Below, in pieces: positions 4,901 through 56,876 of a stretch of 64,000 nucleotides of DNA (position 1 is its first letter; every line of letters starts with the position of its first letter). The notes beneath the pieces are model-generated. The model was not told where the DNA came from and ran no database searches. It worked only from the letters and a program-made list of their open reading frames with translations. Origin of the DNA: a virus (Duplodnaviria; Caudoviricetes); IMG/VR virus record IMGVR_UViG_2663763407_000006, positions 1-64,000 of that record; one strand, 5' to 3'. A program made the position numbers and the translations under genes.

Positions 4901-5416
4901 TTAGCGGCCAATGGCCTTGCGTTGGGCTTCCAGCAGGTCTACGCCGTTAACCATTTCAATCAGGTTAACCACGTCAATCTCCATCACTACCTTGCCGTCA
5001 ATGGTCAGCTTGTAATAAGTACACTGGGTGGATACCTTGGTTTCGGTGTCTTCCCCTTGTTTGGATTCGCCGCCATCAATCTCTTTATGACGGCCACGGA
5101 TTTCGACCTCTACCGCTGTGACCTCGCCGGTGTCGTCGCGCTGATAAGCCCCGGCAAAACGCAGCGGAACCGCGTCAACTTTTGGCGTTCCCCATTGCTG
5201 CAACACCAGCTCGTCAATGCCGCCCATCGACCACTCCATGGAAAGCGCATCGTCATCCAGCCCCAAATCAATCGGCGCAACGCCATTCATCCCGCCGCCC
5301 CGGTAGTTCTCCAGCTTGCGGGTCAGTTTTGGCAGGGTAATGGACGAGACGATCCCCATGTAATCCCGGCCATCGTTAAACAGGTTCATCAATTTCAGCT
5401 TACGTGGCAGTGCCAT
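4901..5416 (-). CDS. FII: Tail tube protein
   Basis: MALPRKLK...LPKLTRKLENYRGGGMNG. Confidence 0.96.
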   Translation of the reverse strand: MALPRKLKLMNLFNDGRDYMGIVSSITLPKLTRKLENYRGGGMNGVAPIDLGLDDDALSMEWSMGGIDELVLQQWGTPKVDAVPLRFAGAYQRDDTGEVTAVEVEIRGRHKEIDGGESKQGEDTETKVSTQCTYYKLTIDGKVVMEIDVVNLIEMVNGVDLLEAQRKAIGR

Positions 5417-6807: not shown

Positions 6808-8772
6808 ATGCTAGTAAGCCTGAAAGCACAGCACAACGCACAAAATAAATTCCGTCAAGACATTAACGGACTAAGAGCATGGGCAGTTATTGCTGTAGTT
6901 TTATATCATTTTGGTGTGCCGGGCTTCTCCGGTGGTTTTATCGGTGTTGATGTTTTTTTTGTTATTTCTGGTTTTTTAATGACAAAAATTATAGTTTCTG
7001 GAATCGAAGTGGGAGATTTCTCTCTTTTACGGTTTTACTTAGCCAGAGCAAGACGAATTATTCCTATGTTACTGGTGTTATGCCTATCATTAATCATTTT
7101 AGGATGGTTCTGGCTTCCAGAAAGCAATTATAAAACTCTAGCAACACATGTGCTCACTGCAATCTTATTTATATCTAATATTAAGTTTTGGCGAGAATCT
7201 GGATATTTTGACTCATCTTCACATGAGAAGTGGCTATTACATACATGGTCACTCTCAGTTGAATGGCAATTTTACATTATATTACCAGTTTTTATCTTAA
7301 TCGTATGGAACCTATTAAGTTACCGAGCAATGAAAACGTCATTGTTCATAGTTGGTTTTATTTCATTGTTCTTATCTTATTATGCATCATATCAATGGCC
7401 TGCTGCGGCATTCTATTTATTACCCACAAGAATTTGGGAAATGCTCGCAGGGGGATTAGTGTGGTGGTCAACAAGGAAAAACTCCCTATCCATTAATCTA
7501 TCTCGATTAACTGAGATCATTGGATTTATTTTTATAGTTTCGTCAATAATATTATTCGATTCATCTATGGTTTGGCCTGGGGTGTATGCGGCTTTGCCTG
7601 TACTGGGCGCAATGTTAGTACTTTCCGCTAAACGATCCGAATCATTATTCACTTCTAATAACCTTGTTCAAAGGCTTGGGACAAGCTCTTACTCTATATA
7701 TCTATGGCATTGGCCGATTGTTGTAGGATTAACTTATCTCGGTTTTCAGGGTAGTTATAAATGGGTGCTGCTAGGTATTATTGTCACAGTGTTATTAGGT
7801 GAGTTATCTCTTAAGTTAATAGAAAATCCAGCAAGAAAACTGTTTAGTAAATTCTCTATCACTTCAAACATAGTATACATGTCATTTGGAATTATTTTCA
7901 TTCTCATAATTTCGCTTGTAATAAAATACAATACTTTCGATCGTGGTATCAGAAGTAATGAAGAAACTATTCAACTTTACACAGAAATACAATCATTCCA
8001 TGTTATGCCCAAAAGAGATAACGGATATTGTTTTTATGATTTAAATAGTGAATCAAACCCCATTATTTCTGAAAGTAAATCAGTTTGTAAAATTGGCGAT
8101 AATTCTTTAAAATCTAAAGGATTACTTTTCGGTGATTCTTTTGCTGGTCAGTATGATCCTTTCATTGATAAGATAGGTAAAAAAGTTGGCTTTGCGGTTG
8201 ATTCAGTTTCAACTAACTGGTGTTTTCCTAGTTTGACTGATTCATTTAATGGCCCCAAGACACGCATAGCATATAAACAGTGCTTACTTAACAGAAAATA
8301 TCTAAAAGAGAATATTACCAAGTATGATTTCATTATACTTTCTGGAATATGGTCTGAACTGTATGAAAAAGGTTATAAACAAGATGTTATTAATGTCATT
8401 GAATATGCGAAATCGGAAAATGTTAAAGTGTACGTTATCGATTCACCCACTCAGTATGATGTAAATGTTTTCGCTAATTTCATGATTGCCGGAATGAATA
8501 ACTTGCCATTCAATTTAAAAGAACTCCCCCAAAACAATGATGTTAACAGAAAAAAAATGGCTGAAATTTTCTATAAAATGCATAATGACAGTATTATAAC
8601 GTTCATTCCTAGAGATGATATTTTCAATTCAACCGATACATATAGTTATAAAGGTATAGAGGTGCCATATTCTTTAGATGGATATCATATATCTATTGAT
8701 GGTGCATTAATGGCAGCAAGGAAATTTATCGAAAGCGGGGTTTACAAAAAGTACTTCCCTGAAAAAAATTAA
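6808..8772 (+). CDS. OafA-like acyltransferase-3 plus SGNH domain (probable O-antigen O-acetyltransferase), moron
   Basis: FRQDINGLRA, GFIGVDVFFVISGFL, HTWSLSVEWQFY, many TM helices; C-terminal GDSF...DGYH; AT-rich and opposite to the phage late genes. Confidence 0.9.
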   Translation: MLVSLKAQHNAQNKFRQDINGLRAWAVIAVVLYHFGVPGFSGGFIGVDVFFVISGFLMTKIIVSGIEVGDFSLLRFYLARARRIIPMLLVLCLSLIILGWFWLPESNYKTLATHVLTAILFISNIKFWRESGYFDSSSHEKWLLHTWSLSVEWQFYIILPVFILIVWNLLSYRAMKTSLFIVGFISLFLSYYASYQWPAAAFYLLPTRIWEMLAGGLVWWSTRKNSLSINLSRLTEIIGFIFIVSSIILFDSSMVWPGVYAALPVLGAMLVLSAKRSESLFTSNNLVQRLGTSSYSIYLWHWPIVVGLTYLGFQGSYKWVLLGIIVTVLLGELSLKLIENPARKLFSKFSITSNIVYMSFGIIFILIISLVIKYNTFDRGIRSNEETIQLYTEIQSFHVMPKRDNGYCFYDLNSESNPIISESKSVCKIGDNSLKSKGLLFGDSFAGQYDPFIDKIGKKVGFAVDSVSTNWCFPSLTDSFNGPKTRIAYKQCLLNRKYLKENITKYDFIILSGIWSELYEKGYKQDVINVIEYAKSENVKVYVIDSPTQYDVNVFANFMIAGMNNLPFNLKELPQNNDVNRKKMAEIFYKMHNDSIITFIPRDDIFNSTDTYSYKGIEVPYSLDGYHISIDGALMAARKFIESGVYKKYFPEKN

Positions 8773-33289: not shown

Positions 33290-34306
33290 TCACTTTTTCT
33301 GACCGCCTACCACTGGCACAATTTCTGTTTTCCTATCATATCTTGCTGTTTGGGCTGTATTCTTGTGCCCTGAAATGGCTTGCTTCTCTGCGAGGGTTCC
33401 CTCTAAGTCTGATATTCCCTTGGCTTTTAAATCATGAAACGTGAAATCAAAGTCCAATTCGGAAAATGTTTTTGCGGCCAATAATTTTGCGTTGCGCCAC
33501 CGACTATTGAAACCATCTCTTGTGTAGCCATGCCCAGACCGCTGATGTAGTACATAAATACTGCTCACACCTGGAGCGATTTCTATTCCATCTGCAATTT
33601 TGATGGCCTGCTGTAATCTTTCCGTCCATGCCTTGATCTGTTTCTTTCCTGTTTTCCCTTGCTGTATAAATACCCCGGCATCTATTAGCTGTGACTTTTT
33701 TAAGGCGAGGATGTCTGCTTGCCGAGCGCAACAAAGATAGGCGAGTTCCATTGCCGCTTTTACAATCGGCGGAGCTACGTTGTAGAGAGCGCTATATTCA
33801 GCGTCAGTAATGTATCGTTCCCTGCTAACCTCTTTAAATTGCTTAACACCCTTGCATGGGTTGCCTTTTACCATTCCCCTCTCATAACCCCAACGATAAA
33901 CCCGCGATAGGAAAGTTTTCTCACGGTTTGCCTGTGTTCTACTGGCAACCCCGCGTCTATCCATATATTTCCTGATATGTTCAGGTTTTATGTTGTCTGG
34001 TTCCATTTTCCCGAAAACTGGTAATACTCTAAGTGAATATTTGCGGTAGTCTTTCTGCGTCTCAACAGCTAACTCATTAAAATCAACAGAGCGGAAAAAC
34101 TGTTCAATGAGTTTATTCAAGTTGGCTTTTTCTAATGGCTCATTATTTATTTTTTCGTAGCATGACCATACTTGAGAAATAGGTGCATCCAATGGGCATA
34201 GCGATATTGAGCCACCGCGGGCGGGGTGGAATTCATATTTCGATTTTCCACGATACACCCGAGGTGGTAATGCCGTGTCTGCGGCGTTCTTGCGTTTACC
34301 GGCCAC
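33290..34306 (-). CDS. int: Tyrosine integrase
   Basis: LCCARQAD, FHDLKAK, SGHK, ARYDR. Confidence 0.93.
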   Translation of the reverse strand: MAGKRKNAADTALPPRVYRGKSKYEFHPARGGSISLCPLDAPISQVWSCYEKINNEPLEKANLNKLIEQFFRSVDFNELAVETQKDYRKYSLRVLPVFGKMEPDNIKPEHIRKYMDRRGVASRTQANREKTFLSRVYRWGYERGMVKGNPCKGVKQFKEVSRERYITDAEYSALYNVAPPIVKAAMELAYLCCARQADILALKKSQLIDAGVFIQQGKTGKKQIKAWTERLQQAIKIADGIEIAPGVSSIYVLHQRSGHGYTRDGFNSRWRNAKLLAAKTFSELDFDFTFHDLKAKGISDLEGTLAEKQAISGHKNTAQTARYDRKTEIVPVVGGQKK

Positions 34307-34532
34307 TGTTCATGGCCTCGAAATTGGGTTCTTCTTTTTCTGGCTCTAGCGGCTTACCGCGTAAACTGATTGGATTCAAAAAATGGCCCCAAGTGGTTTT
34401 CGGGTGTCCGTCTGGGCGTCGGATAAAAAAGATCCCCGAGCGGCGTAAAGAGTCACATTGTTTGGTTTTGTAGTGATGACCGGTCAACTCAATCATCTCC
34501 TCTTTGGTGATTATGTCGTGGTCGTTTTTCAT
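34296..34532 (-). CDS. DUF4224-like probable excisionase
   Basis: IITKEEMIELTG...QC..L...GIFF..R.DG.P...EPNF; overlaps int. Confidence 0.78.
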   Translation of the reverse strand: MKNDHDIITKEEMIELTGHHYKTKQCDSLRRSGIFFIRRPDGHPKTTWGHFLNPISLRGKPLEPEKEEPNFEAMNSGR

Positions 34533-34695
34533 GGTCTTGCCCCTGTATCATTTGGGTTATTGCTCTGTCGGTAGCAGAACAGGCCCGCTGTATATCGTGG
34601 TCGGTGAGTTGTTGTTTCCGTACACTGGCTGATAATTTGCCGATCTTAATATCTAAGTCGGTTAATAGGCGTTTGCCCGGTTGCCATGGCTGCAT
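34489..34695 (-). CDS. Hypothetical phage protein
   Basis: ORF in the leftward early operon with AGGGA SD. Confidence 0.6.
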   Translation of the reverse strand: MQPWQPGKRLLTDLDIKIGKLSASVRKQQLTDHDIQRACSATDRAITQMIQGQDHEKRPRHNHQRGDD

Positions 34696-34744: not shown

Positions 34745-34927
34745 TTATTTCTGATTATGCAAAATCAATTTTTCGGGTGCTTTCTGCGGTGGGGTGCTGC
34801 TAATTCGAACATCTACCGGAAAATCGTAGTGAACATCACAACGGCGATCAGTGTGGATGGTGCCTGTTCGTCCATCGGGGAGTGTGATATAGGACTTTTC
34901 ACCGCGTTTGTGAGTACGCTTTAGCAT
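34745..34927 (-). CDS. Small protein, possibly CsrA-like fold
   Basis: GAGG SD; ML..T.K.GE...I...P.DV.I pattern. Confidence 0.55.
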   Translation of the reverse strand: MLKRTHKRGEKSYITLPDGRTGTIHTDRRCDVHYDFPVDVRISSTPPQKAPEKLILHNQK

Positions 34928-34972
34928 GGGTGTTGCCTCAGTAATGCCCCGTTGGTTTGGGGCGGGATGAAA

Positions 34973-35473
34973 TTAGCGAACCTGCAGGCTACGGCTACCG
35001 ATCTCGATATGCGCACCTTTAACATCAACACCATTCTCTATGGCTTCCTTAATGGCTTTTTTATCGGGCGCTACGGTGGTTTGCACTGTCACCAATTCAC
35101 TGGACAATAAGTCTTCATTGTCGATCACCACACTGGCCACACCTTTGCGTGCGGTGAATGTGTTATACGGCGTTTTAAGTGTGTTCATATCTGCGGCCAA
35201 TAAGCAGTTAAGGACGTACTGTTTGATCGATTTGGCCCGATTCTCGAATGACCTTTTCCGCTCAGCCAGACGTTTAGCTTCCTCATCACAGGTCTTTGCT
35301 TGCCCCTCAAGATTGCGAACAAAGACGTAGGTTGCATCCAGCTTATCCCCCAGGGCACCCTCTAACCCCTCAAGCGTATCGGCGATCATTTCTGGCGTGA
35401 GTTCCTCTGAGGACTCAACCAACTGTTGCAGTTTGAAAAGGTCTGCGGCTAATGCGATTGCTGTATTGCTCAT
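34973..35473 (-). CDS. Siphovirus Gp157-family protein
   Basis: DTLEGLEG...EAKRLAERK...PDKKAIKEAI..G..V.GAHIE. Confidence 0.85.
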   Translation of the reverse strand: MSNTAIALAADLFKLQQLVESSEELTPEMIADTLEGLEGALGDKLDATYVFVRNLEGQAKTCDEEAKRLAERKRSFENRAKSIKQYVLNCLLAADMNTLKTPYNTFTARKGVASVVIDNEDLLSSELVTVQTTVAPDKKAIKEAIENGVDVKGAHIEIGSRSLQVR

Positions 35474-37668
35474 AATGTCGGCTCCTGTGCGGTAAGTTCA
35501 GCAACCCGTTTTTCAGTTAAGCGGTGTAACGCCAGCAGGCGGGTTTTGAGGTAATTGGCGTGTTCGTGATCGGCTTTGGCTTCTGCATCTTTGCGGTGTA
35601 CATCAACTTCACGCGCAATGGTGCTGTAAACCTTGTTCACTTCGTTGGTGGTGACGGCGCTCGTAATGGTATTGCCTACTTTGGTTAACTTCTCATCCAG
35701 CTCTTTGCGCAGACGAACTGAGTCACCGGCTTTCTCACTTGCGTTCTTGATAGCAAACTCAGCGGCGTTATCAGTGCGGTATCCGAGATCATCAAAAAGA
35801 CCGAGGAATACATCAGCAGAGAAACCAAGTTGTGACAGTGCCTTTTTAGTCGCATCCGTTAGTGATTTTTTGGTGACTTCACTATCACAGGTGAGACCGT
35901 TTTTGGTGTTGTAGATATATGGGGTGCAACCATATGCAGGGATTTCGCCACGCTCACCACGCAGGGTGTAGATTAAGCGTATTTTAATGACATGATTGAT
36001 CTCAGTTAGATAGCCGCCAGATCCGTTGGGTATGACTTCTTTTATATAATTTCCATCAGCACCTTTGACTGACCGCATGATCGGTGCACCGTTATCAAAG
36101 CGTTCTTCTAAAATCTCCACCCGCCAGTTGATACCTTGTGGCCCAAGCAATTTTGTTGCTTGCATAACCATATAGGTGCCGTTAATCGACGTGCCACCAC
36201 CGTTATTTGAGAATGCTTTAGTAAAGCGTTCATCGGTTCTTTGCACCGAGCGCCACAGATTCATGTTGTCCTGCACATCTTGTGGCTGTGAAGATATATC
36301 CTCTTCAATGATGACGGCTCGCTGCTGAAATTCATCAGCAGTAACATCTACAGTAGGAATAGCGCTTTGCTGCGCCTCTTCAATAACCTCTGTCGGCTTC
36401 TCCTCAACTGAGGCATAAACGCTGTAACCCAACTGATCCAACGTCTCTTTAGCCTGTTGAGCTGCGTTATCAGTGATAGGTTCCAGTTCAGGGTTTTCCT
36501 GTTCTGTTTCAACAATTGGCGGTTTTGTTTCAGTTTCTGGCTCAGAATTGGCAACCAGCGCCAGTTTTGTTTCATTGTTTGCCGCTGGTTGCGGTTCACC
36601 ACCGGCTAGACCATCAATAGAGAACTTGCCATCACCCAGATTGGTTACTGCGGGTTGTGGGTTTTTAACGGCTAAACACTGAGTGATAAATTCCTTTCGT
36701 GCTGAGGCATCGGTCAGGAAGATAGGTTGCTTTTTACCCGCGCGGATCACTTCAAAGATGCTTTCACGTGGAATAGATAACACATTGTTGCGAACGCGAA
36801 AATCGGTTGACCATTTACGCCAGGCATCATCATTGTTATCCATCAGCTCTTTTGCTTGCTTCATCTCTGCCGACATGACATCCCAGCAGTTAAAATCAGC
36901 AGGCAATAAGGCGAGAGCGACTTCGAGATCGAGCGTTTTATATGTGTGCTCAAAGCTGCGTTTGATTGGCGCATCAGGAGCCGGCGTGTCAATACGGGCA
37001 ACTTTTTTAGTACCGGTTAACTCGTCACGATTGCTGGGTTCATTAACCCATTTTTCAGCAAAGCTACGTACTTCCCTGAATCCAGGTATTTTGGGGAATT
37101 TCTTATTTATCGCATCAATAAGATTTTTAATTGACTGCGGATACATCGCGCCAATTGCAGGAATACATGTGAGCGCCATGTATATCGAACTTATTTCCGG
37201 CTCAGCGTCGTCATCATTAATTAAGTCATACACAAGTGATAGCTCATGTGAATCAATGTCACGCGCACCGTACAACATTACGCTACCAACTTTAGCTCCA
37301 ATACCCAGTTTGTTGAAATCAACCGGAGTAGTAGTAGTAATGTCCTCACTTACCTCGCCGTTGTCTTCATTACCATCCTCAGGCAACGGTACAGCATTAG
37401 GCGTCCATACTTTGCCATCAAAGGTATTATCCTGTGCGAACTGCTCATCGAACTCACCAACAACCGGGCGCGGTTGCCCGACAGTATCCTCACAGATTTT
37501 CGGATCAGCAAAGTTATCACCGGCAGCGGGGTAGGCTTCCCATAATTTCCCGATGGCCAGTGCGGATGCCATTTTCTTATTTATGGCTTCCAGAGCTATA
37601 ACAAGCGGTATAGCCCCATTTTTGAGAGCCGCTTTTTTCGGCTCGAATAAACAAATAAATACAGTCAT
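35470..37668 (-). CDS. RecE N-terminal-like region fused to a Rad52/Sak-like annealing domain
   Basis: N-terminal PRPVVGEFDEQF and TLDLEVALAL; C-terminal ATKLLGPQGINW...KKSLTDATKKALSQLGFSADVF. Confidence 0.7.
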   Translation of the reverse strand: MTVFICLFEPKKAALKNGAIPLVIALEAINKKMASALAIGKLWEAYPAAGDNFADPKICEDTVGQPRPVVGEFDEQFAQDNTFDGKVWTPNAVPLPEDGNEDNGEVSEDITTTTPVDFNKLGIGAKVGSVMLYGARDIDSHELSLVYDLINDDDAEPEISSIYMALTCIPAIGAMYPQSIKNLIDAINKKFPKIPGFREVRSFAEKWVNEPSNRDELTGTKKVARIDTPAPDAPIKRSFEHTYKTLDLEVALALLPADFNCWDVMSAEMKQAKELMDNNDDAWRKWSTDFRVRNNVLSIPRESIFEVIRAGKKQPIFLTDASARKEFITQCLAVKNPQPAVTNLGDGKFSIDGLAGGEPQPAANNETKLALVANSEPETETKPPIVETEQENPELEPITDNAAQQAKETLDQLGYSVYASVEEKPTEVIEEAQQSAIPTVDVTADEFQQRAVIIEEDISSQPQDVQDNMNLWRSVQRTDERFTKAFSNNGGGTSINGTYMVMQATKLLGPQGINWRVEILEERFDNGAPIMRSVKGADGNYIKEVIPNGSGGYLTEINHVIKIRLIYTLRGERGEIPAYGCTPYIYNTKNGLTCDSEVTKKSLTDATKKALSQLGFSADVFLGLFDDLGYRTDNAAEFAIKNASEKAGDSVRLRKELDEKLTKVGNTITSAVTTNEVNKVYSTIAREVDVHRKDAEAKADHEHANYLKTRLLALHRLTEKRVAELTAQEPTL

Positions 37669-37723
37669 GTTGGTCTTGCCTCTTTGGTTTTTAAACGGAT
37701 CTTGGTCTTTGATGTATGACTAA

Positions 37724-38059
37724 TTAAAAAGGAATTTCGGTATCATCAGATACGTTCGATGGAGTGCTGTGCTCGATGCATAGCAACGCCTGAATCTGAT
37801 CATCAATTAGTGACTGCTTACGATATGACTCAGCCGCAATCTGTTCCTTTTTGCTATGGAGTGAATCGACATGCTTGCTGATGATTTCAAAAGGGTCGGG
37901 TTCGTCAAAAGGAATCGTAATTTCTCGGGTTTCGAGTAAAACATGCGCTGGCTCAACCTGTGACATGTCACAGGTGTACACGGTAAAGCGATCATCTTTT
38001 GATGTTGAATATGGATTGGTATGGATGTAGAGCTTGGTGGTTATCTGTAGTGCTGTCAT
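37724..38059 (-). CDS. Hypothetical phage protein
   Basis: AGGAG SD before MTALQ; ends IQALLCIEH...EIPF. Confidence 0.7.
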   Translation of the reverse strand: MTALQITTKLYIHTNPYSTSKDDRFTVYTCDMSQVEPAHVLLETREITIPFDEPDPFEIISKHVDSLHSKKEQIAAESYRKQSLIDDQIQALLCIEHSTPSNVSDDTEIPF

Positions 38060-38068
38060 AGCAACTCC

Positions 38069-38077
38069 TGATATACT
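38069..38077 (+). promoter_or_regulatory. Extended -10 promoter of the candidate sRNA
   Basis: TG-A-TATACT. Confidence 0.6.
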
Positions 38078-38083
38078 TATTTT

Positions 38084-38201
38084 AAGATTGATGGCGTAAG
38101 CCGTTGGTCTTGCCTCTGTTAACGGGTTGGTCCCCGTTAGCTTCCCGGTTAACTTTGGTCGGTGACCCGGGGTAAAGAAGCCCACTTCGGTGGGTTTTTT
38201 T
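38084..38201 (+). ncRNA. Candidate multi-target antisense sRNA (about 120 nt)
   Basis: GNRA hairpin, single-stranded seed, two hairpins with UUGGUC loops, C(UUCG)G terminator plus U tract; seed complementary to six sites in early transcripts. Confidence 0.72.
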
Positions 38202-38369
38202 ACGTCTGTAATTTGGTGCCCATTACGCCGGGCCAGCGGGTCAGATCTTCGGTCTTGCCTCACCACACTTTCCCGTCGTGGCTACGTTATTGGTTTGGGC
38301 TGCTGCACTGTGGTAATCATGCCGAGCCTTGGCGCGGGGTTCTCCTCCAATGCAACAACCCAAATTCTG

Positions 38370-38525
38370 TTATTGCCGTACTTTGACTACTTGATAATCA
38401 CGGCCAGTATTACGTGCGTAATCATCAGCTTCTTTGCGAGTTGGGTAAGTATTTCCGTTAGCCCACATTCCACAGTAGCGATATTGGATCTGGAATTTAC
38501 TCGCTTGCTTTTTAGTTGCTTTCAT
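38370..38525 (-). CDS. 51-aa first ORF of the pL operon
   Basis: GAGGG SD; MKATKKQASKFQIQYRYCGMWANG. Confidence 0.55.
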   Translation of the reverse strand: MKATKKQASKFQIQYRYCGMWANGNTYPTRKEADDYARNTGRDYQVVKVRQ

Positions 38526-38671
38526 AACTTCCCTCTTTTGCCGTCTTCCCGGCTGCCAGAACGTACTAAACCTAAACTTGCGAATCATCCGGTGTTTCGT
38601 ATGCCACCGGCAGCTACTTCGTGGGCGTCCTGCCTGTTCGCATCGGCTACTGTGCCGTGTTGATGAAAACA

Positions 38672-38713
38672 ATTAAACACTTTGGTTGTATTTATGTCAA
38701 CAACTTTGGTTGT
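38672..38713 (-). promoter_or_regulatory. pL promoter with OL operators
   Basis: TTGACA-17-TTTAAT; operator ACAACTTTGGTTGT at 38700-38713 and a partial copy at 38676-38689. Confidence 0.8.
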
Positions 38714-40107: not shown

Positions 40108-40821
40108 TCAATAATCCAGAACTGACCACCAAAACACGCGGCCAATAATTTCTACGGTTTCTCCGTCAGCATCTTCATCTGGGTGCTCGACTTTATTAAA
40201 GCTGCGGATACTTAGCTTATTTCCTGGCATACGATATAAAAGCTTAAGGCGTTTTAATCCGTCTTGATTGATTGCATATATTTTACCATCGATAATTTTT
40301 TTATTTGCACAATCAACAGCTACTGTCGTACCGTTTGGTAGAATCGGCTCCATGCTATTTCCATGGGCTGGAAAGCAAATAACATTCTCTTTCTGAGCAC
40401 CAACTCGTCGCAAGGTCGATTTCGAAAAGCGAAGTTTAAAACCATTGTAGTCTTGATCACAAAAGCTACCATCACCGGCAGCAAGTTCAATATCACGTAA
40501 GAATGGTACTTCGACCTCGTCTTCGTGAATTGGGCACTGACTATCCCAAGGTATAATATTCCCCCATTCATTCTCAGAAGGAATATTTGATTCCTGATTT
40601 ATTGTTTTAGTCGATTCCTTCATCGGCAAAATCCCTTCTCCAAGCCATTCCGGGCGTACCTGGAGTGCGCGGGAAATTTCCAGTAGCTTAGTGGTGCTCT
40701 GGCTTTTACCGGACGTTATTTTTTGAATAGCAGCTTGTGAAACTCCAGCCTTCTCAGCTAGCGCAGCCTGAGTTAGCCCAGATTCCTTCATGGCTACTTT
40801 CAATCTTTGTGCAAGTGTCAT
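40108..40821 (-). CDS. cI: CI repressor (HTH plus S24 autopeptidase)
   Basis: HTH LTQAALAEKAGVSQAAIQKI; AAG cleavage site, GNSMEP, LKLL. Confidence 0.93.
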   Translation of the reverse strand: MTLAQRLKVAMKESGLTQAALAEKAGVSQAAIQKITSGKSQSTTKLLEISRALQVRPEWLGEGILPMKESTKTINQESNIPSENEWGNIIPWDSQCPIHEDEVEVPFLRDIELAAGDGSFCDQDYNGFKLRFSKSTLRRVGAQKENVICFPAHGNSMEPILPNGTTVAVDCANKKIIDGKIYAINQDGLKRLKLLYRMPGNKLSIRSFNKVEHPDEDADGETVEIIGRVFWWSVLDY

Positions 40822-40838
40822 TCCCATCCTCGCAAAAT

Positions 40839-40929
40839 ACAACCTTAGTTATACTCGGTCAAATCACTATTGTTGTTGCTTAAAAACAACCTTGGTTGTA
40901 TATTTGCAGTTAAATACAACAAAGGTGAT
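40839..40929. promoter_or_regulatory. OR region: four 14-bp 434-like operators
   Basis: ACAAC-N4-GTTGT variants at 40839, 40863, 40886 (perfect) and 40916. Confidence 0.78.
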
Positions 40930-41237: not shown

Positions 41238-41702
41238 GTGGAACAAGAAATCAAAGCCCTTAAAGCCGAAGTTCAGGCGTGGGCGGCAGAGCGGGGGCAG
41301 GAGCATGTAGCTATCGAGATCAGCAGAATGTTTTTCTTGCTCAATATCAACACCGGTTCAGTTCGTCTCACTCCCATTGAAAACGGGCAGGGCGGCGCTG
41401 ATTGGAAGTCTATTAATAACAACCGGCAGCAGTTATTTCGCTGGCTGCGCGGGGATTCAAAAGCATCAATGCGCAAGGTCTTGGAATTATCACCGGTACT
41501 TAAAGCGGCACTCCCGGCAGAACGGCGGGCCAGGGTGAATGGCGAGACCGTGAATTATTTGGTTTCGATTGCTAGCCGAGAGTTTGCCGCAGCAATTAGC
41601 GCGGTTCTATTAGATGGCTGTGACATGTCACAAAGAATATCGGGCGCTGTTGCGGCACTTCACGCAATCAGACCACAACACCAACGGCTGACCACCGTAT
41701 AA
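41238..41702 (+). CDS. CII/YdaT-like regulator
   Basis: WAAERGQEHVA...NRQQLFRWL; AGGAG SD; follows cro. Confidence 0.75.
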   Translation: MEQEIKALKAEVQAWAAERGQEHVAIEISRMFFLLNINTGSVRLTPIENGQGGADWKSINNNRQQLFRWLRGDSKASMRKVLELSPVLKAALPAERRARVNGETVNYLVSIASREFAAAISAVLLDGCDMSQRISGAVAALHAIRPQHQRLTTV

Positions 41703-41718
41703 AACAGAGGCAAGACCA

Positions 41719-41943
41719 ATGCTTACATCTATCGACAAAATCACCTGGCGCAATGGATTCCGGCTTAACGGCCAACCGGCAAGTATGGCTGACATCGCCC
41801 CTATTTTTGCCGGGCGTCAGGTAGCCGCCTATAGCGTGTGGGAGCAGTACGAGCAGAAGAAAGCTGACCTGCGCGGGATGAACCTATCGCCTGACGATTA
41901 TCAGTCTGCCTGTCGGCAAATAGCCGCAGCGCTGGGGATCTGA
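41719..41943 (+). CDS. Hypothetical protein preceding the replication initiator
   Basis: ORF with GAGG SD; stops 2 nt before the O-like gene. Confidence 0.7.
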   Translation: MLTSIDKITWRNGFRLNGQPASMADIAPIFAGRQVAAYSVWEQYEQKKADLRGMNLSPDDYQSACRQIAAALGI

Positions 41944-42920: not shown

Positions 42921-44290
42921 AACCTCAAGAGTTAGAAGCGGCAATTCTATCCGGCCTGCTGTATGGCGGCTCAACCCCTGATGCGTTGGAGGTTATTGCC
43001 ACACTGCCGGAAGAGGCATTTAGCATCAGGATTTATCGTTCTGCCTATGCGGAAATTAAAAAGCAGGCACTGACCAAAGGGATGATCGATGTTCTGTTTG
43101 TCAGTGAGGCGCTGGGCGGTAGTAGTCTGGCTACGCTATCTGAAATTGTCCGTATGCCGGGCAACGTGGCGAACCTGAAAGGCTATGCCGCCCATGCCCG
43201 TAAGATTTGGTATAGCCGCACCATGACCGCATTATTTCAGACCGCGGCTGACGGCATCCGAGGGGCGAACAATCAGGAACAGCGCGATCAGGTGATACAG
43301 GGAGCGGTAACACAGCTAATTGATATGACGGCAGATAGCGGCGGCATTATCCCGGTGCATCTAAATGACTTATTGCCCGGCTATATGGACATGCTGGATA
43401 AGCGCATGAATGGTGAAATTGAGTCAATGAACCTGCAAAGCGGCATTGTCGAGCTGGATGCCATCACCGGTGGCTTTAACCCGCAGGACTTGGTGGTTAT
43501 CGCCGGGCGTCCGGGGATGGGTAAGACCGAGTTTGCGTTGAGAATTGTTGAGGGGGCCACACAGAACGGCGGCGGGGCGCTGATATTCAGTATGGAAATG
43601 GCTTCCCTACAGATGGTAGAGCGTTCCGTTGCCGGGGTCGGTAATTTGCCGGTGTCAAAATTGCGTGACCCTAAAACCTTATGTGACGAGGACTGGGCGC
43701 GCATTAACTCTGCACTACAGGCATTGAATGGCCGTGATATTTGGATTGTTGATGCCAGCGAACTAACCATCGATCAGATACGGGCTATCGCCGAAACACA
43801 CAAGCGCCGGTACCCGCAATTAAGAATGGTGATGGTTGATTATCTTGGCCTGATTACCAAACCCAAGGCGGAGCGTAATGACCTATCAGTCGGCATCATT
43901 TCACGCGGCTTAAAAACACTGGCCGGTCGGATAAACACCCCGATTTTTGCCCTTAGCCAGTTATCCCGAAAAGTGGATGAACGGCCACCGGGTAGCCGTA
44001 GGCCAATCAGTTCCGATCTCAGAGACTCCGGTTCAATCGAGCAGGATGCTGACAGCATCATTATGTTGTATCGAGAGGCGGTTTATAACGCCGATAGTCC
44101 GGCGGCCAGATTTGCCGAGGCCATTGTAACCAAAAACCGATTTGGTGAGCCCGGCACCGTTTATCAGGAATTTAAAAACGGCCACTTTCTGCCGGTGGAT
44201 CAACTAGTGGCAAAGGAAGCCAGCCGAATAGCAAAAGAGGCATCAAGGCCACCGACCAAAGAAAAACACTATTCAACACCTAAATTTTAA
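42917..44290 (+). CDS. DnaB-like replicative helicase
   Basis: AGRPGMGKT, FSMEM, VDYLGL, LSQLSR, DLRDSGSIEQDAD, KNRFG. Confidence 0.95.
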   Translation: MKPQELEAAILSGLLYGGSTPDALEVIATLPEEAFSIRIYRSAYAEIKKQALTKGMIDVLFVSEALGGSSLATLSEIVRMPGNVANLKGYAAHARKIWYSRTMTALFQTAADGIRGANNQEQRDQVIQGAVTQLIDMTADSGGIIPVHLNDLLPGYMDMLDKRMNGEIESMNLQSGIVELDAITGGFNPQDLVVIAGRPGMGKTEFALRIVEGATQNGGGALIFSMEMASLQMVERSVAGVGNLPVSKLRDPKTLCDEDWARINSALQALNGRDIWIVDASELTIDQIRAIAETHKRRYPQLRMVMVDYLGLITKPKAERNDLSVGIISRGLKTLAGRINTPIFALSQLSRKVDERPPGSRRPISSDLRDSGSIEQDADSIIMLYREAVYNADSPAARFAEAIVTKNRFGEPGTVYQEFKNGHFLPVDQLVAKEASRIAKEASRPPTKEKHYSTPKF

Positions 44291-44333
44291 CCGCGCCTGA
44301 CCAGCGTGTGAACTAACCCAAAGAGGCAAGACC

Positions 44334-44756
44334 ATGCATACAATCAATGAATACATCAATGAAAAACGTCCGGTTATTGACGATGGCTGCGACCACGGCC
44401 CGGCAATAATAGATCGTATCAATCAAGCAGCTCGCGCTCGTCTGCGTGTCCCATATGTTCCCGCACCAAAGCTGGATAAGGTGGCTGAACCTGTCATTGA
44501 ACATGGCGCCATGGTGAAAATCGGTAACCGTATTAGCTATGGTCGCCGCGTTATGACCGGCATTTATGAATTACAGCGCCTTGGCCGTTCCCCGCAACGT
44601 ATTTCAGTCATGCTAAAAATGCCGCTGGATAGAGTTGAGCACATTCTTAAAGCAGATACCCCGGTAAGACTGGAACTACTCAACAAAGTAAAGGCCGGGC
44701 CACTCCCCAGCGAACCCAACATCATGAAACGCCTGGCGGCTGAGTCGAGGGCGTAA
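44334..44756 (+). CDS. Hypothetical phage protein (possible HTH)
   Basis: GAGG SD; GRSPQRISVMLKMPLDRVEHIL. Confidence 0.7.
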   Translation: MHTINEYINEKRPVIDDGCDHGPAIIDRINQAARARLRVPYVPAPKLDKVAEPVIEHGAMVKIGNRISYGRRVMTGIYELQRLGRSPQRISVMLKMPLDRVEHILKADTPVRLELLNKVKAGPLPSEPNIMKRLAAESRA

Positions 44757-44758
44757 CC

Positions 44759-45010
44759 ATGGCCGGGCAATCGGATTATCTCCCACCCGGACTCCCGTAC
44801 AACATTTGCCTCTGGCCTCAGGAATACCAAGAAAAGCTAAATCTTGATTTGAGGGCCAGCGGCTTAATCAAAAATCTGTACGAGCGTAGAACCCACCGCG
44901 CCCACGTACTGGAAGCGATTGAACGGGTACCGGTGCATTATCGGGAGTTTTTTAAACAGCGCTTAAATTACTGGCGTGACCGTAGAGACCACAGAGGTGA
45001 GACCAAATGA
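44759..45010 (+). CDS. Hypothetical phage protein
   Basis: MAGQSDYLPPGLP; coupled to its neighbours. Confidence 0.7.
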   Translation: MAGQSDYLPPGLPYNICLWPQEYQEKLNLDLRASGLIKNLYERRTHRAHVLEAIERVPVHYREFFKQRLNYWRDRRDHRGETK

Positions 45011-56755: not shown

Positions 56756-56876
56756 GAAACTACGCTTTAACAATTACCGCCAACGGTAAAAAACTGAGTT
56801 ATCCAAAATCTGAGCCTCGCCATCGTGCGGGGCTTTTTAATGGGCTAGGCCCAGCAATAAATCCCAAGGGGACAGC

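Follow-up and report, generated by a model that had tools for sequence, protein, structure and literature searches.

The locus described here raises the question of whether a single small RNA (sRNA), encoded in the early region of a lambda-like provirus, holds the genes for excision, recombination and replication in check together. The window, that is, the whole stretch of DNA analysed, comprises 64,000 nucleotides (nt) of the 76-kb provirus record IMGVR_UViG_2663763407_000006, whose nearest relatives are found in genomes of Yersinia frederiksenii and Y. artesiana. It contains a predicted sRNA gene of about 117 nt, located on the strand opposite to the leftward early operon, with a seed complementary to a tag repeated at the ribosome-binding sites (RBSs) of several early genes. 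The proposal of the first-pass annotation, according to which a trans-acting RNA represses the three groups of genes together, finds partial support in the sequence comparisons presented below. The reading preferred here, with a probability of about 0.62, is that of a trans-acting anti-RBS RNA, also cis-antisense to the transcript of the pL promoter, which would gate the cistrons that lead the blocks for excision, recombination and replication.

The elements from which the gene had been predicted, i.e., a -10 sequence, a GUAA hairpin, the seed, two further hairpins and a UUCG terminator, are all present at the coordinates collected in Table 1. The -10 lies directly after the start codon (38057-38059) and the Shine-Dalgarno (SD) sequence of a divergent gene for a 111-amino-acid (aa) protein, and a -10-like hexamer (TATACT, TATAAT or TAAAAT) is found in the same place in every clade despite differing flanks; this conservation, the sequence itself and the fold are consistent with the promoter and terminator proposed earlier. 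The seed is also in its place, but its 5' half, GUUGGUCUU, forms the 3' arm of hairpin 1 (-15.0 kcal/mol for this hairpin alone), and only GCCUCUGUU is unpaired in the predicted fold. The hexanucleotide UUGGUC is seen three times in the sRNA. The plus strand folds with an energy of -54.8 kcal/mol (z -5.51, with none of 200 shuffled sequences as good), compared with -35.8 kcal/mol (z -2.86) for the minus strand, in agreement with the plus-strand RNA proposed at the outset. As a separate observation, the 5' arm of hairpin 1 in many of the related sRNAs carries a recurrent GATC, a Dam site, facing UGGUC; the GAUCA:UGGUC pairing in hairpin 1 contains one wobble, and the targets carry the perfect GACCA. 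The presence of GATC in this arm may simply be a way of keeping hairpin 1 weaker than the target duplex.

The structure of the sRNA, likewise claimed to be conserved, is indeed maintained by compensatory changes among relatives. Eighty related proviral loci were fetched through a 74-aa gene of the rightward operon, and R1, a covariance model built from nine sRNA copies, gives a full-length plus-strand match in 78 of them; each of the two negative loci (L058 and L079) has less than 1 kb of upstream sequence. Among the 55 distinct copies 95.1% of 2428 alignment cells pair, a value biased toward structure by the fitting of the alignment to the model, and 33 of the 45 pairs change on both sides. 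None of 500 shuffles reaches the pairing statistic, and slid controls give 40.6-50.4%. G:U cells number 444 against 6 A:C cells, an excess that identifies the plus strand as the RNA, and pairing would amount to 77.1% were the minus strand the RNA. In 17 related proviral loci the 111-aa protein is only 74-81% identical, whereas the RNA stretch is nearly identical, its few changes being located in the 5' arm of hairpin 1, with pairing kept via A-U/G-U or U-G/C-G exchanges. The same architecture is present in Pectobacterium phage ZF40 and in a Morganella psychrotolerans prophage (35% and 28% identity of the 111-aa homologue, respectively), with different stem sequences for hairpins 1 and 2 and the terminator, but an unchanged seed and unchanged UUGGUC and CUUUGGUCGG loops; the terminator stem of ZF40 differs in sequence through compensating changes. 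All nine stem pairs of hairpin 2 change on both sides among relatives, its UUGGUC loop being kept in most clades, and the core GGUCUU[G/U]CCU is found in all 79 related sRNA copies examined.

As to distribution, ten of 5426 RefSeq Escherichia coli genomes match the form of the sRNA with a U in the variable core position, none of them with a feature annotated under the match. An Rfam family search of 151 genomes of the host's order returned the source genome only; with its strict filters and 27 candidates per genome, it is uninformative on distribution. Apart from these, a stretch of 114 nt under a 'hypothetical protein' matches the U-allele sRNA at 73% in the records of the Stenotrophomonas phages BUCT708 and BUCT709 (OM816834 and OM816835); as the other occurrences of the element are in Enterobacterales, a host label of this kind was not expected.

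The counterpart of the seed is a tag, GAGGCAAGACC(AA)-AUG, carried by five early genes distributed over both early operons and, in a weaker form, by a sixth site; one additional copy is startless. Every copy is oriented with transcription, so that the mRNAs read GAGGCAAGACC(A)(A)(C)AUG. The tag, AGAGG[C]AAGACC(AA), spans the SD sequence and the spacer and is the complement of the seed UUGGUCUU[G]CCUCU. Searched as a 13-mer with no more than two mismatches, it occurs 10 times in the window versus 1.52 times expected, a count reached by none of 100 shuffles. The six complementary sites listed by the first-pass annotation were recovered with the very matches it reported; of these, the copy at 38249-38261, with its single G:U, does not lie in the pL leader proper, as had been thought, but downstream of a 51-aa open reading frame (ORF), and has no start codon. 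A startless copy within 700 nt on the pL side is found in 29 of 54 representative loci. The tagged genes are first cistrons: xis(-int), exonuclease(-Gp157), the 74-aa gene before the initiator and helicase genes, and two small rightward genes.

Predicted interaction energies single out the same sites. Seed-only duplexes with the targets range from -27.2 to -34.5 kcal/mol and those with ten control start regions from -6.9 to -20.3 kcal/mol, while the mean for all 2228 ATG contexts of the window is -12.2 kcal/mol (standard deviation 4.2), the duplex with target 3 being the lowest of them all. When the full-length sRNA is compared with every 30-nt window, the site at 41701 comes first (-42.0 kcal/mol), followed by GC-rich matches with large internal loops; in the same full-length scan the IsrB RNA of the Salmonella prophage Gifsy-2, discussed below, yields no RBS-type match.

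In whole genomes the tag is confined to the early region of the prophage. The complete genome of ZF40 (48.5 kb) contains eight copies of the core versus 0.19 expected, all at 1.8-10.9 kb: six abut the starts of gp03, gp05, gp07, gp13, gp16 and gp18, one lies under the sRNA gene, and one is startless. Of the exact copies in three host genomes, the prophage contig contains 7 of 7 (Morganella), 5 of 6 and 6 of 9 (both Yersinia); the reversed pattern does not occur. Elsewhere in the host genome the number of tags is close to that expected by chance, with 3 copies in 4.9 Mb of one genome, and no host targets are indicated at this level. The related loci together hold 129 unique exact contexts of the 10-nt core within 6 nt of an ATG, compared with none in the reversed sequence.

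Seed and tag also vary together. All 46 loci with the seed ...UUGCCU... have only the C-type AGGCAAGACC at starts, and all 33 loci with ...UUUCCU... have only the A-type AGGAAAGACC. The flank of the tag at the 74-aa gene follows the seed too: the window has AACAGAGG and the L057 group GUACCGAGG, both with their counterpart in the respective seed. The covariation of seed and RBS predicted by the first-pass annotation is thus free of exceptions in 79 loci, but it reflects only about two evolutionary switches, a point taken up below.

Another motif accompanies the tagged starts. In the 60 nt upstream of them GACCA occurs 122 times versus 12.4 expected (9.9-fold, 169 unique windows, in which orthologous genes are non-independent cases), and its reverse complement is absent from the same windows. 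These boxes are located in hairpin loops in 74 of 106 cases (54 as CUGACCA), compared with 145 of 918 elsewhere. Hairpins with a CUGACCA loop number two in the window and two in ZF40; none is present in the Morganella locus or in Gifsy-2. The loop sequence CUGACCA can form seven pairs, one of them a wobble, with UGGUCGG in the loop of hairpin 3, and the complement of this loop, ACCGACCAAAG, occurs five times in the window with at most one mismatch (0.81 expected), with an exact copy at 44251-44261. Loop-loop docking is a known habit of antisense RNAs, and the complementarity suggests that the GACCA and CUGACCA boxes may be its partners here.

The sRNA is not without known relatives, which limits the novelty first claimed for it: its 3' two-thirds correspond to the Rfam family isrB (RF01386), while no description of the seed regulon was found. 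The latter statement covers literature, mainly from outside the subscription journals, on IsrB, on a small RNA of ZF40 and on prophage anti-SD sRNAs. In a permissive scan the isrB match extends over 38114-38200 of the plus strand and the full model (positions 1-87), with 35.0 bits and E 9.4e-5 at a cut-off of 35; it is marked as over the cut-off in the genome search and covers the 3' 87 nt of the sRNA. Close relatives score 38.4 (pass), 34.8 and 29.4 bits (both fail). Gifsy-2 IsrB itself scores 99.3 bits with the isrB model, and model R1 matches it at 35.5 bits.

IsrB-1 and IsrB-2, of Gifsy-2 and Gifsy-1 of Salmonella Typhimurium, respectively, resemble the window sRNA in having a hairpin with a CUUUGGUCGGU loop followed by a UUCG terminator, in being placed inside a lambdoid leftward early operon near a recE/sbcA-type exonuclease gene in the opposite orientation, and in having a -10 hexamer just upstream; in Gifsy-2 this is TAGAAT, located 6-12 nt ahead of the two 5' ends that can be deduced from the mapped lengths (88 and 94 nt). 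They differ in that an IsrB of this length starts about where the seed of the window sRNA ends, lacking hairpin 1 and UUGGUCUUGCCUC, and in that it abuts the exonuclease start, whereas here the 111-aa gene lies between the two. No repeated tag was found in the first 20 kb of Gifsy-2 (no exact copy and one chance-like copy with one mismatch). The conserved -10 of the window sRNA is about 35 nt further upstream than an RNA of IsrB length needs, which predicts the longer RNA of about 117 nt, extended by a hairpin and the seed. Since IsrB lacks hairpin 1 and the seed, and Gifsy-2 lacks the tag, the window sRNA is, judged by sequence comparison, an enlarged relative of IsrB, made of the shared core (hairpin 3 and the terminator) and a 5' seed module, with hairpin 1, the seed and hairpin 2 as the extra parts.

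According to the available parts of the published accounts, isrB-1 and isrB-2 are RNAs of 88 and 94 nt encoded in the interval that separates sbcA from the gene after it, on the opposite strand and convergent with sbcA/recE; Northern blots and primer extension have shown both RNAs, which are starvation-induced and are listed among sRNAs overlapping flanking genes as cis-antisense (PMC2330248). IsrB-1 is expressed in strain 4/74 according to RNA sequencing (10.1101/787010), and IsrB is named among ProQ-associated prophage sRNAs (PMC5391140), in contrast to the Rfam title of isrB, which refers to Hfq. The accounts of IsrB considered here, including these three sources, assign no function or target to it. 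Two RNAs should be kept apart from this family: the E. coli 'IsrB' (AzuCR) is a different RNA of the same name, and svsR of the E. coli prophage NC-SV, as presented in the accessible part of its description, is an unrelated, co293-like RNA from the cI 3' end that acts on mal genes (PMC12803456).

Transcription of the window sRNA may be expected from that of its homologue IsrB. None of the sequencing runs listed as containing the locus is on record as RNA. Three raw RNA runs labelled with the same species gave only 4, 0 and 1 partial reads, at 38573-38674, which indicates that those runs do not contain this prophage and are uninformative on expression either way; nor does a run of contigs bear on strand or transcription.

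If the sRNA acts as preferred here, first contact would be made by the free anti-SD stretch GCCUCU, perhaps also by the UUGGUC loops with GACCA boxes or CUGACCA loops on the mRNAs. Pairing would next spread into the wobble-rich hairpin 1 to give a 13-17 bp duplex over the RBS; this duplex would block initiation, and downstream cistrons would be silenced through translational coupling. Transcripts from pL would traverse the antisense of the sRNA gene. Because the sRNA is fully complementary to the pL transcript, which often carries a startless tag as well, strong pL transcription on induction should titrate or destroy it, and in the lysogen the sRNA would then set a threshold, or provide a safety catch, against leaky expression of the early genes.

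A number of observations weigh against this reading. In a tree of the sRNA without the seed column the allele changes only about two times, one of them on a long-branch row, and each change altered many sites at once, so that the matching is perfect across 79 loci yet reflects few events. The other strand of the sRNA gene contains another copy of the motif, and any shared reader would therefore yield the same concerted change; recombination homogenising all copies would give the same allele pattern. Tags with a single substitution are G:U-compatible in 16 cases and mismatched in 5 (the reversed control gives 5 chance one-mismatch matches), but the SD guanines are constrained anyway, so that about half of the substitutions would be G:U-compatible by chance and the excess is modest. 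With up to three mismatches it is gone (56 G:U versus 134 other changes), although this set is mixed with chance matches and 45 of the 134 affect the final tag position, which is shared with an overlapping ATG. The predicted fold sequesters half of the seed in hairpin 1, and a simple consensus scan flagged neither the promoter nor the plus-strand terminator of the sRNA. The cro gene, the cII-like gene and the int, initiator and helicase genes have no tag of their own, and their control would depend on translational coupling. The isrB score is exactly at the cut-off and the match is absent from the list of the gathering scan of the 64-kb window; the expectation of expression comes from a homologue as distant as this. 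Finally, as Salmonella IsrB lacks the seed and Gifsy-2 the tag, the core of the family, hairpin 3 and the terminator, must have a role beyond the model proposed here. Taken as evidence for RNA-RNA pairing, the sequence data are suggestive rather than conclusive.

Some of these points would be accommodated by a purely cis-acting RNA, an explanation considered unlikely in the face of other evidence. It holds that the sRNA is a convergent antisense RNA combined with a two-way terminator in the pL operon, attenuating or processing pL transcripts through collision, RNase III or termination, the other RBS matches being a by-product of the pL transcript carrying one more standard RBS cassette. The complementarity of the sRNA to the pL transcript over its whole length fits this explanation, as does the terminator, whose A tract pairs with its own U tract and which can therefore also act on pL transcripts from the other side: it is terminator-like on the minus strand too, where the consensus scan flagged its only such site (38194-38181), and R1 matches it on both strands in 15 loci. 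Salmonella IsrB keeps position and orientation without the seed, and its listing as cis-antisense to flanking genes, cited above, points the same way. Yet the tag copy under the sRNA gene is startless in the window and in ZF40 and is nevertheless exactly kept; it sits in a plus-strand hairpin, the partner arm of which varies freely with pairing kept, changing only in ways that preserve pairing on the plus strand. In seeds of the ZF40 type a U replaces the C of other seeds and faces an SD G (a wobble), a change that weakens the SD cassette of the other strand while target pairing is kept. Moreover, action in cis gives no role to the extra UUGGUC loops and to the GACCA boxes upstream of distant targets, and an RNA that matches RBSs perfectly over 13-17 nt could hardly be prevented from acting in trans; both modes of action may coexist.

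The concerted change of all copies in few events is also what would be predicted if the tag were read by a protein or optimised for ribosomes, e.g., as the operator of a T4 RegA-like repressor, with the sRNA unrelated to it. The GACCA boxes in conserved hairpin loops could be protein sites, and several conserved small proteins without assigned function are encoded in the region. No candidate protein emerged, however, and such a reader would leave unexplained the complement of the tag in a conserved plus-strand hairpin, with a free anti-SD stretch behind a conserved -10, as well as the G:U lean of the single substitutions (16 versus 5) and the triple UUGGUC of the sRNA; the explanation is judged distinctly improbable. 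That the stretch is instead coding, as an N-terminal extension of the 111-aa gene in a 180-aa ORF (37724-38266), is hardly credible: the frame is open from a GTG at 38266 and gp08 of ZF40 is annotated across the homologous stretch (coding sequence 4919-5407 of JQ177065, which covers the sRNA gene), but homologues from Yersinia, Pectobacterium and others begin at the ATG at 38059 with similarity from residue 1 (placing the true start of gp08 at about 5212, for 97 aa), close relatives differ by a 2-nt insertion/deletion within the stretch, its variation tracks RNA pairing and not codons, and some relatives have the upstream part replaced altogether, the homologue starts and the 2-nt difference also ruling out a leader peptide.

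The preferred reading of an anti-RBS RNA may be extended by a tentative idea, held to be rather doubtful, in which seed G/tag C and seed U/tag A are two RNA immunity specificities working beside CI. A resident RNA would then silence the excision, recombination and replication blocks of relatives with the same tag allele, whatever their repressor type, and the wholesale switch of 6-9 sites per genome would represent an escape from cross-silencing. The hairpin 3 of the IsrB core would be a docking module kissing CUGACCA-type target loops.

Among known phage RNAs, C4 of P1/P7 is the closest in its manner of working. Short segments of this phage-encoded RNA base-pair with the ribosome-binding part of a phage mRNA and thereby restrain a function of the lytic cycle; the specificities of P1 and P7 differ in a few bases, changed in step in C4 and in its targets. 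The window sRNA is similar in having short segments complementary to RBSs of lytic-function mRNAs and matched alleles, the G:C versus U:A alleles here being parallel to the P1/P7 specificity changes; this is a likeness of working, not of membership, and neither a gathering scan of the window nor a permissive scan of 37950-38350 gave a match to Rfam C4. C4 is cut from the same transcript as its targets and controls one operon (icd-ant), whereas the window sRNA is encoded opposite the pL operon behind a convergent promoter of its own with a conserved -10, would not be cut from a transcript of its targets, and matches 5-8 genes in both early operons. The CI RNA of the satellite phage P4, to which the N15 RNA is related, pairs with repeated complementary boxes on early transcripts, and causes premature termination in the leader, from which it is itself processed. 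Startless tags such as those on the pL transcript are reminiscent of the P4 leader boxes, but the main sites of the window sRNA are RBSs; no relation to P4 CI or N15 RNA, in sequence or by family, was found in the Rfam scans. The OOP RNA of lambda is a short convergent RNA in an early operon with its own promoter and terminator, which overlaps the end of cII and acts on it; OOP is not known to have trans targets. The window sRNA is likewise convergent, has its own predicted promoter and terminator and is fully complementary to the opposing transcript; it differs from OOP, which has no shared RBS tag.

The early region around the sRNA gene has a lambda-like order (Table 1).

Table 1. Predicted sRNA gene, complementary sites and surrounding genes in the window (duplex energies in kcal/mol)
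Feature	Position	Strand	Remarks
Integrase gene		-	Left end of layout
Excisionase gene	34296-34532	-	phrog_1266; left end of layout
Target 1, excisionase RBS/start	34532-34546	-	14/15 and one G:U; abuts ATG; duplex -28.2
Weak candidate target, RBS of 60-aa ORF (34745-34927)	34927-34939	-	Two mismatches; duplex -21.7; uncertain
Gp157-family gene		-	Beside 732-aa exonuclease gene
732-aa exonuclease gene	35470-37668	-	phrog_2489
Target 2, exonuclease RBS	37669-37683	-	15/15; abuts ATG; duplex -29.5
111-aa gene	37724-38059	-	phrog_2479; no assigned function
Predicted sRNA promoter, -10	38069-38077	+	TGaTATACT = TGATATACT
Hairpin 1	38083-38112	+	GGC-GUAA-GCC; GUAA loop; stem rich in G:U wobbles
Predicted sRNA	38085-38201	+	About 117 nt; 5' end deduced; four hairpins
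Seed	38103-38120	+	GUUGGUCUUGCCUCUGUU (UUGGUCUUGCCUC); complement of RBS tag
Hairpin 2	38118-38141	+	TAACGGG-TTGGTC-CCCGTTA; loop UUGGUC
Hairpin 3	38143-38172	+	Loop CUUUGGUCGGUGA (CUUUGGUCGG); part common with Salmonella IsrB
Predicted intrinsic terminator	38174-38201	+	GCCCAC-UUCG-GUGGGU and U7
Startless tag copy on pL transcript	38249-38261	-	One G:U; duplex -24.3; upstream of antisense-sRNA stretch
51-aa ORF	38370-38525	-	
Probable pL promoter	38672-38700	-	TTGACA, 17 nt, TTTAAT; by eye; consensus scan silent
Nuclease gene			In rex position
CI-like repressor gene	40108-40842	-	Follows nuclease gene
cII-like gene		+	First of the rightward genes listed
Hairpin with CUGACCA loop	41684-41698	+	ACGG-CUGACCA-CCGU; just upstream of target 3
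Target 3, RBS/ATG of 74-aa gene	41703-41719	+	17/17; duplex -34.5
74-aa gene	41719-41943	+	phrog_2465; leads replication block
Initiator gene	from 41946	+	
Helicase gene	from 42917	+	Followed by small genes
Hairpin with CUGACCA loop	44292-44308	+	CGCGC-CUGACCA-GCGUG; upstream of target 4
Target 4, RBS/start of 140-aa gene	44322-44334	+	13/13; duplex -27.2
140-aa gene	44334-44756	+	
Target 5, RBS of short ORF starting at 45007	44991-45006	+	16 nt, two G:U; duplex -27.2

The 111-aa gene always adjoins the sRNA gene, its RBS overlapping the sRNA promoter, and a Pfam search with the 111-aa protein gave no family. The block at about 38215-38540, with the 51-aa ORF and the startless copy of the tag, is a module that is either present or absent; in five of the 17 close relatives (L005, L006, L007, L010 and L016) the sRNA terminator directly joins the leader hairpin. 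At 38540-38553 of the minus strand, and in the pL-side leaders of relatives, small hairpins with a GAAAGA or GGAAGA loop are found, with CUGACAG just before them. They number 1-3 per pL leader, have compensating stem variants (GCCGG/CCGGC, GCGG/CCGC and GCUGG/CCAGC) and are independent of the C/A allele of the RBS tag; we take them to resemble nut/boxB-type sites. In one relative, L017, an unrelated, structured-looking insert (about 7650-7850, minus strand) is located directly behind the sRNA terminator in place of the usual sequence. Its start is, in our assumption, reminiscent of group II introns, the insertion of which behind terminators is known. Elsewhere in the window, 56770-56836 of the plus strand matches another sRNA family of Salmonella islands, Rfam isrJ (RF01393), at 54.7 bits with a cut-off of 37.

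What appears to be new at this locus is the combination of an enlarged IsrB, a manner of working like that familiar from C4 and P4 CI, an own convergent promoter and a private RBS tag shared by several genes. The sRNA is unannotated in the RefSeq E. coli genomes and hidden under an over-long coding sequence in ZF40. The two natural alleles, seed G/tag C and seed U/tag A, constitute a ready compensatory pair. IsrB has been a detected prophage RNA since 2008 (PMC2330248); if the preferred reading of a trans-acting anti-RBS RNA is true, its enlarged form would gain a concrete job. The first cistron of each block, for excision, recombination and replication, would bear the same private tag of the phage, and all of them would be gated by a single RNA. 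This would constitute a second, post-transcriptional layer of lysogeny control in the lambda-like phages of Yersinia, Morganella, Pectobacterium and E. coli.

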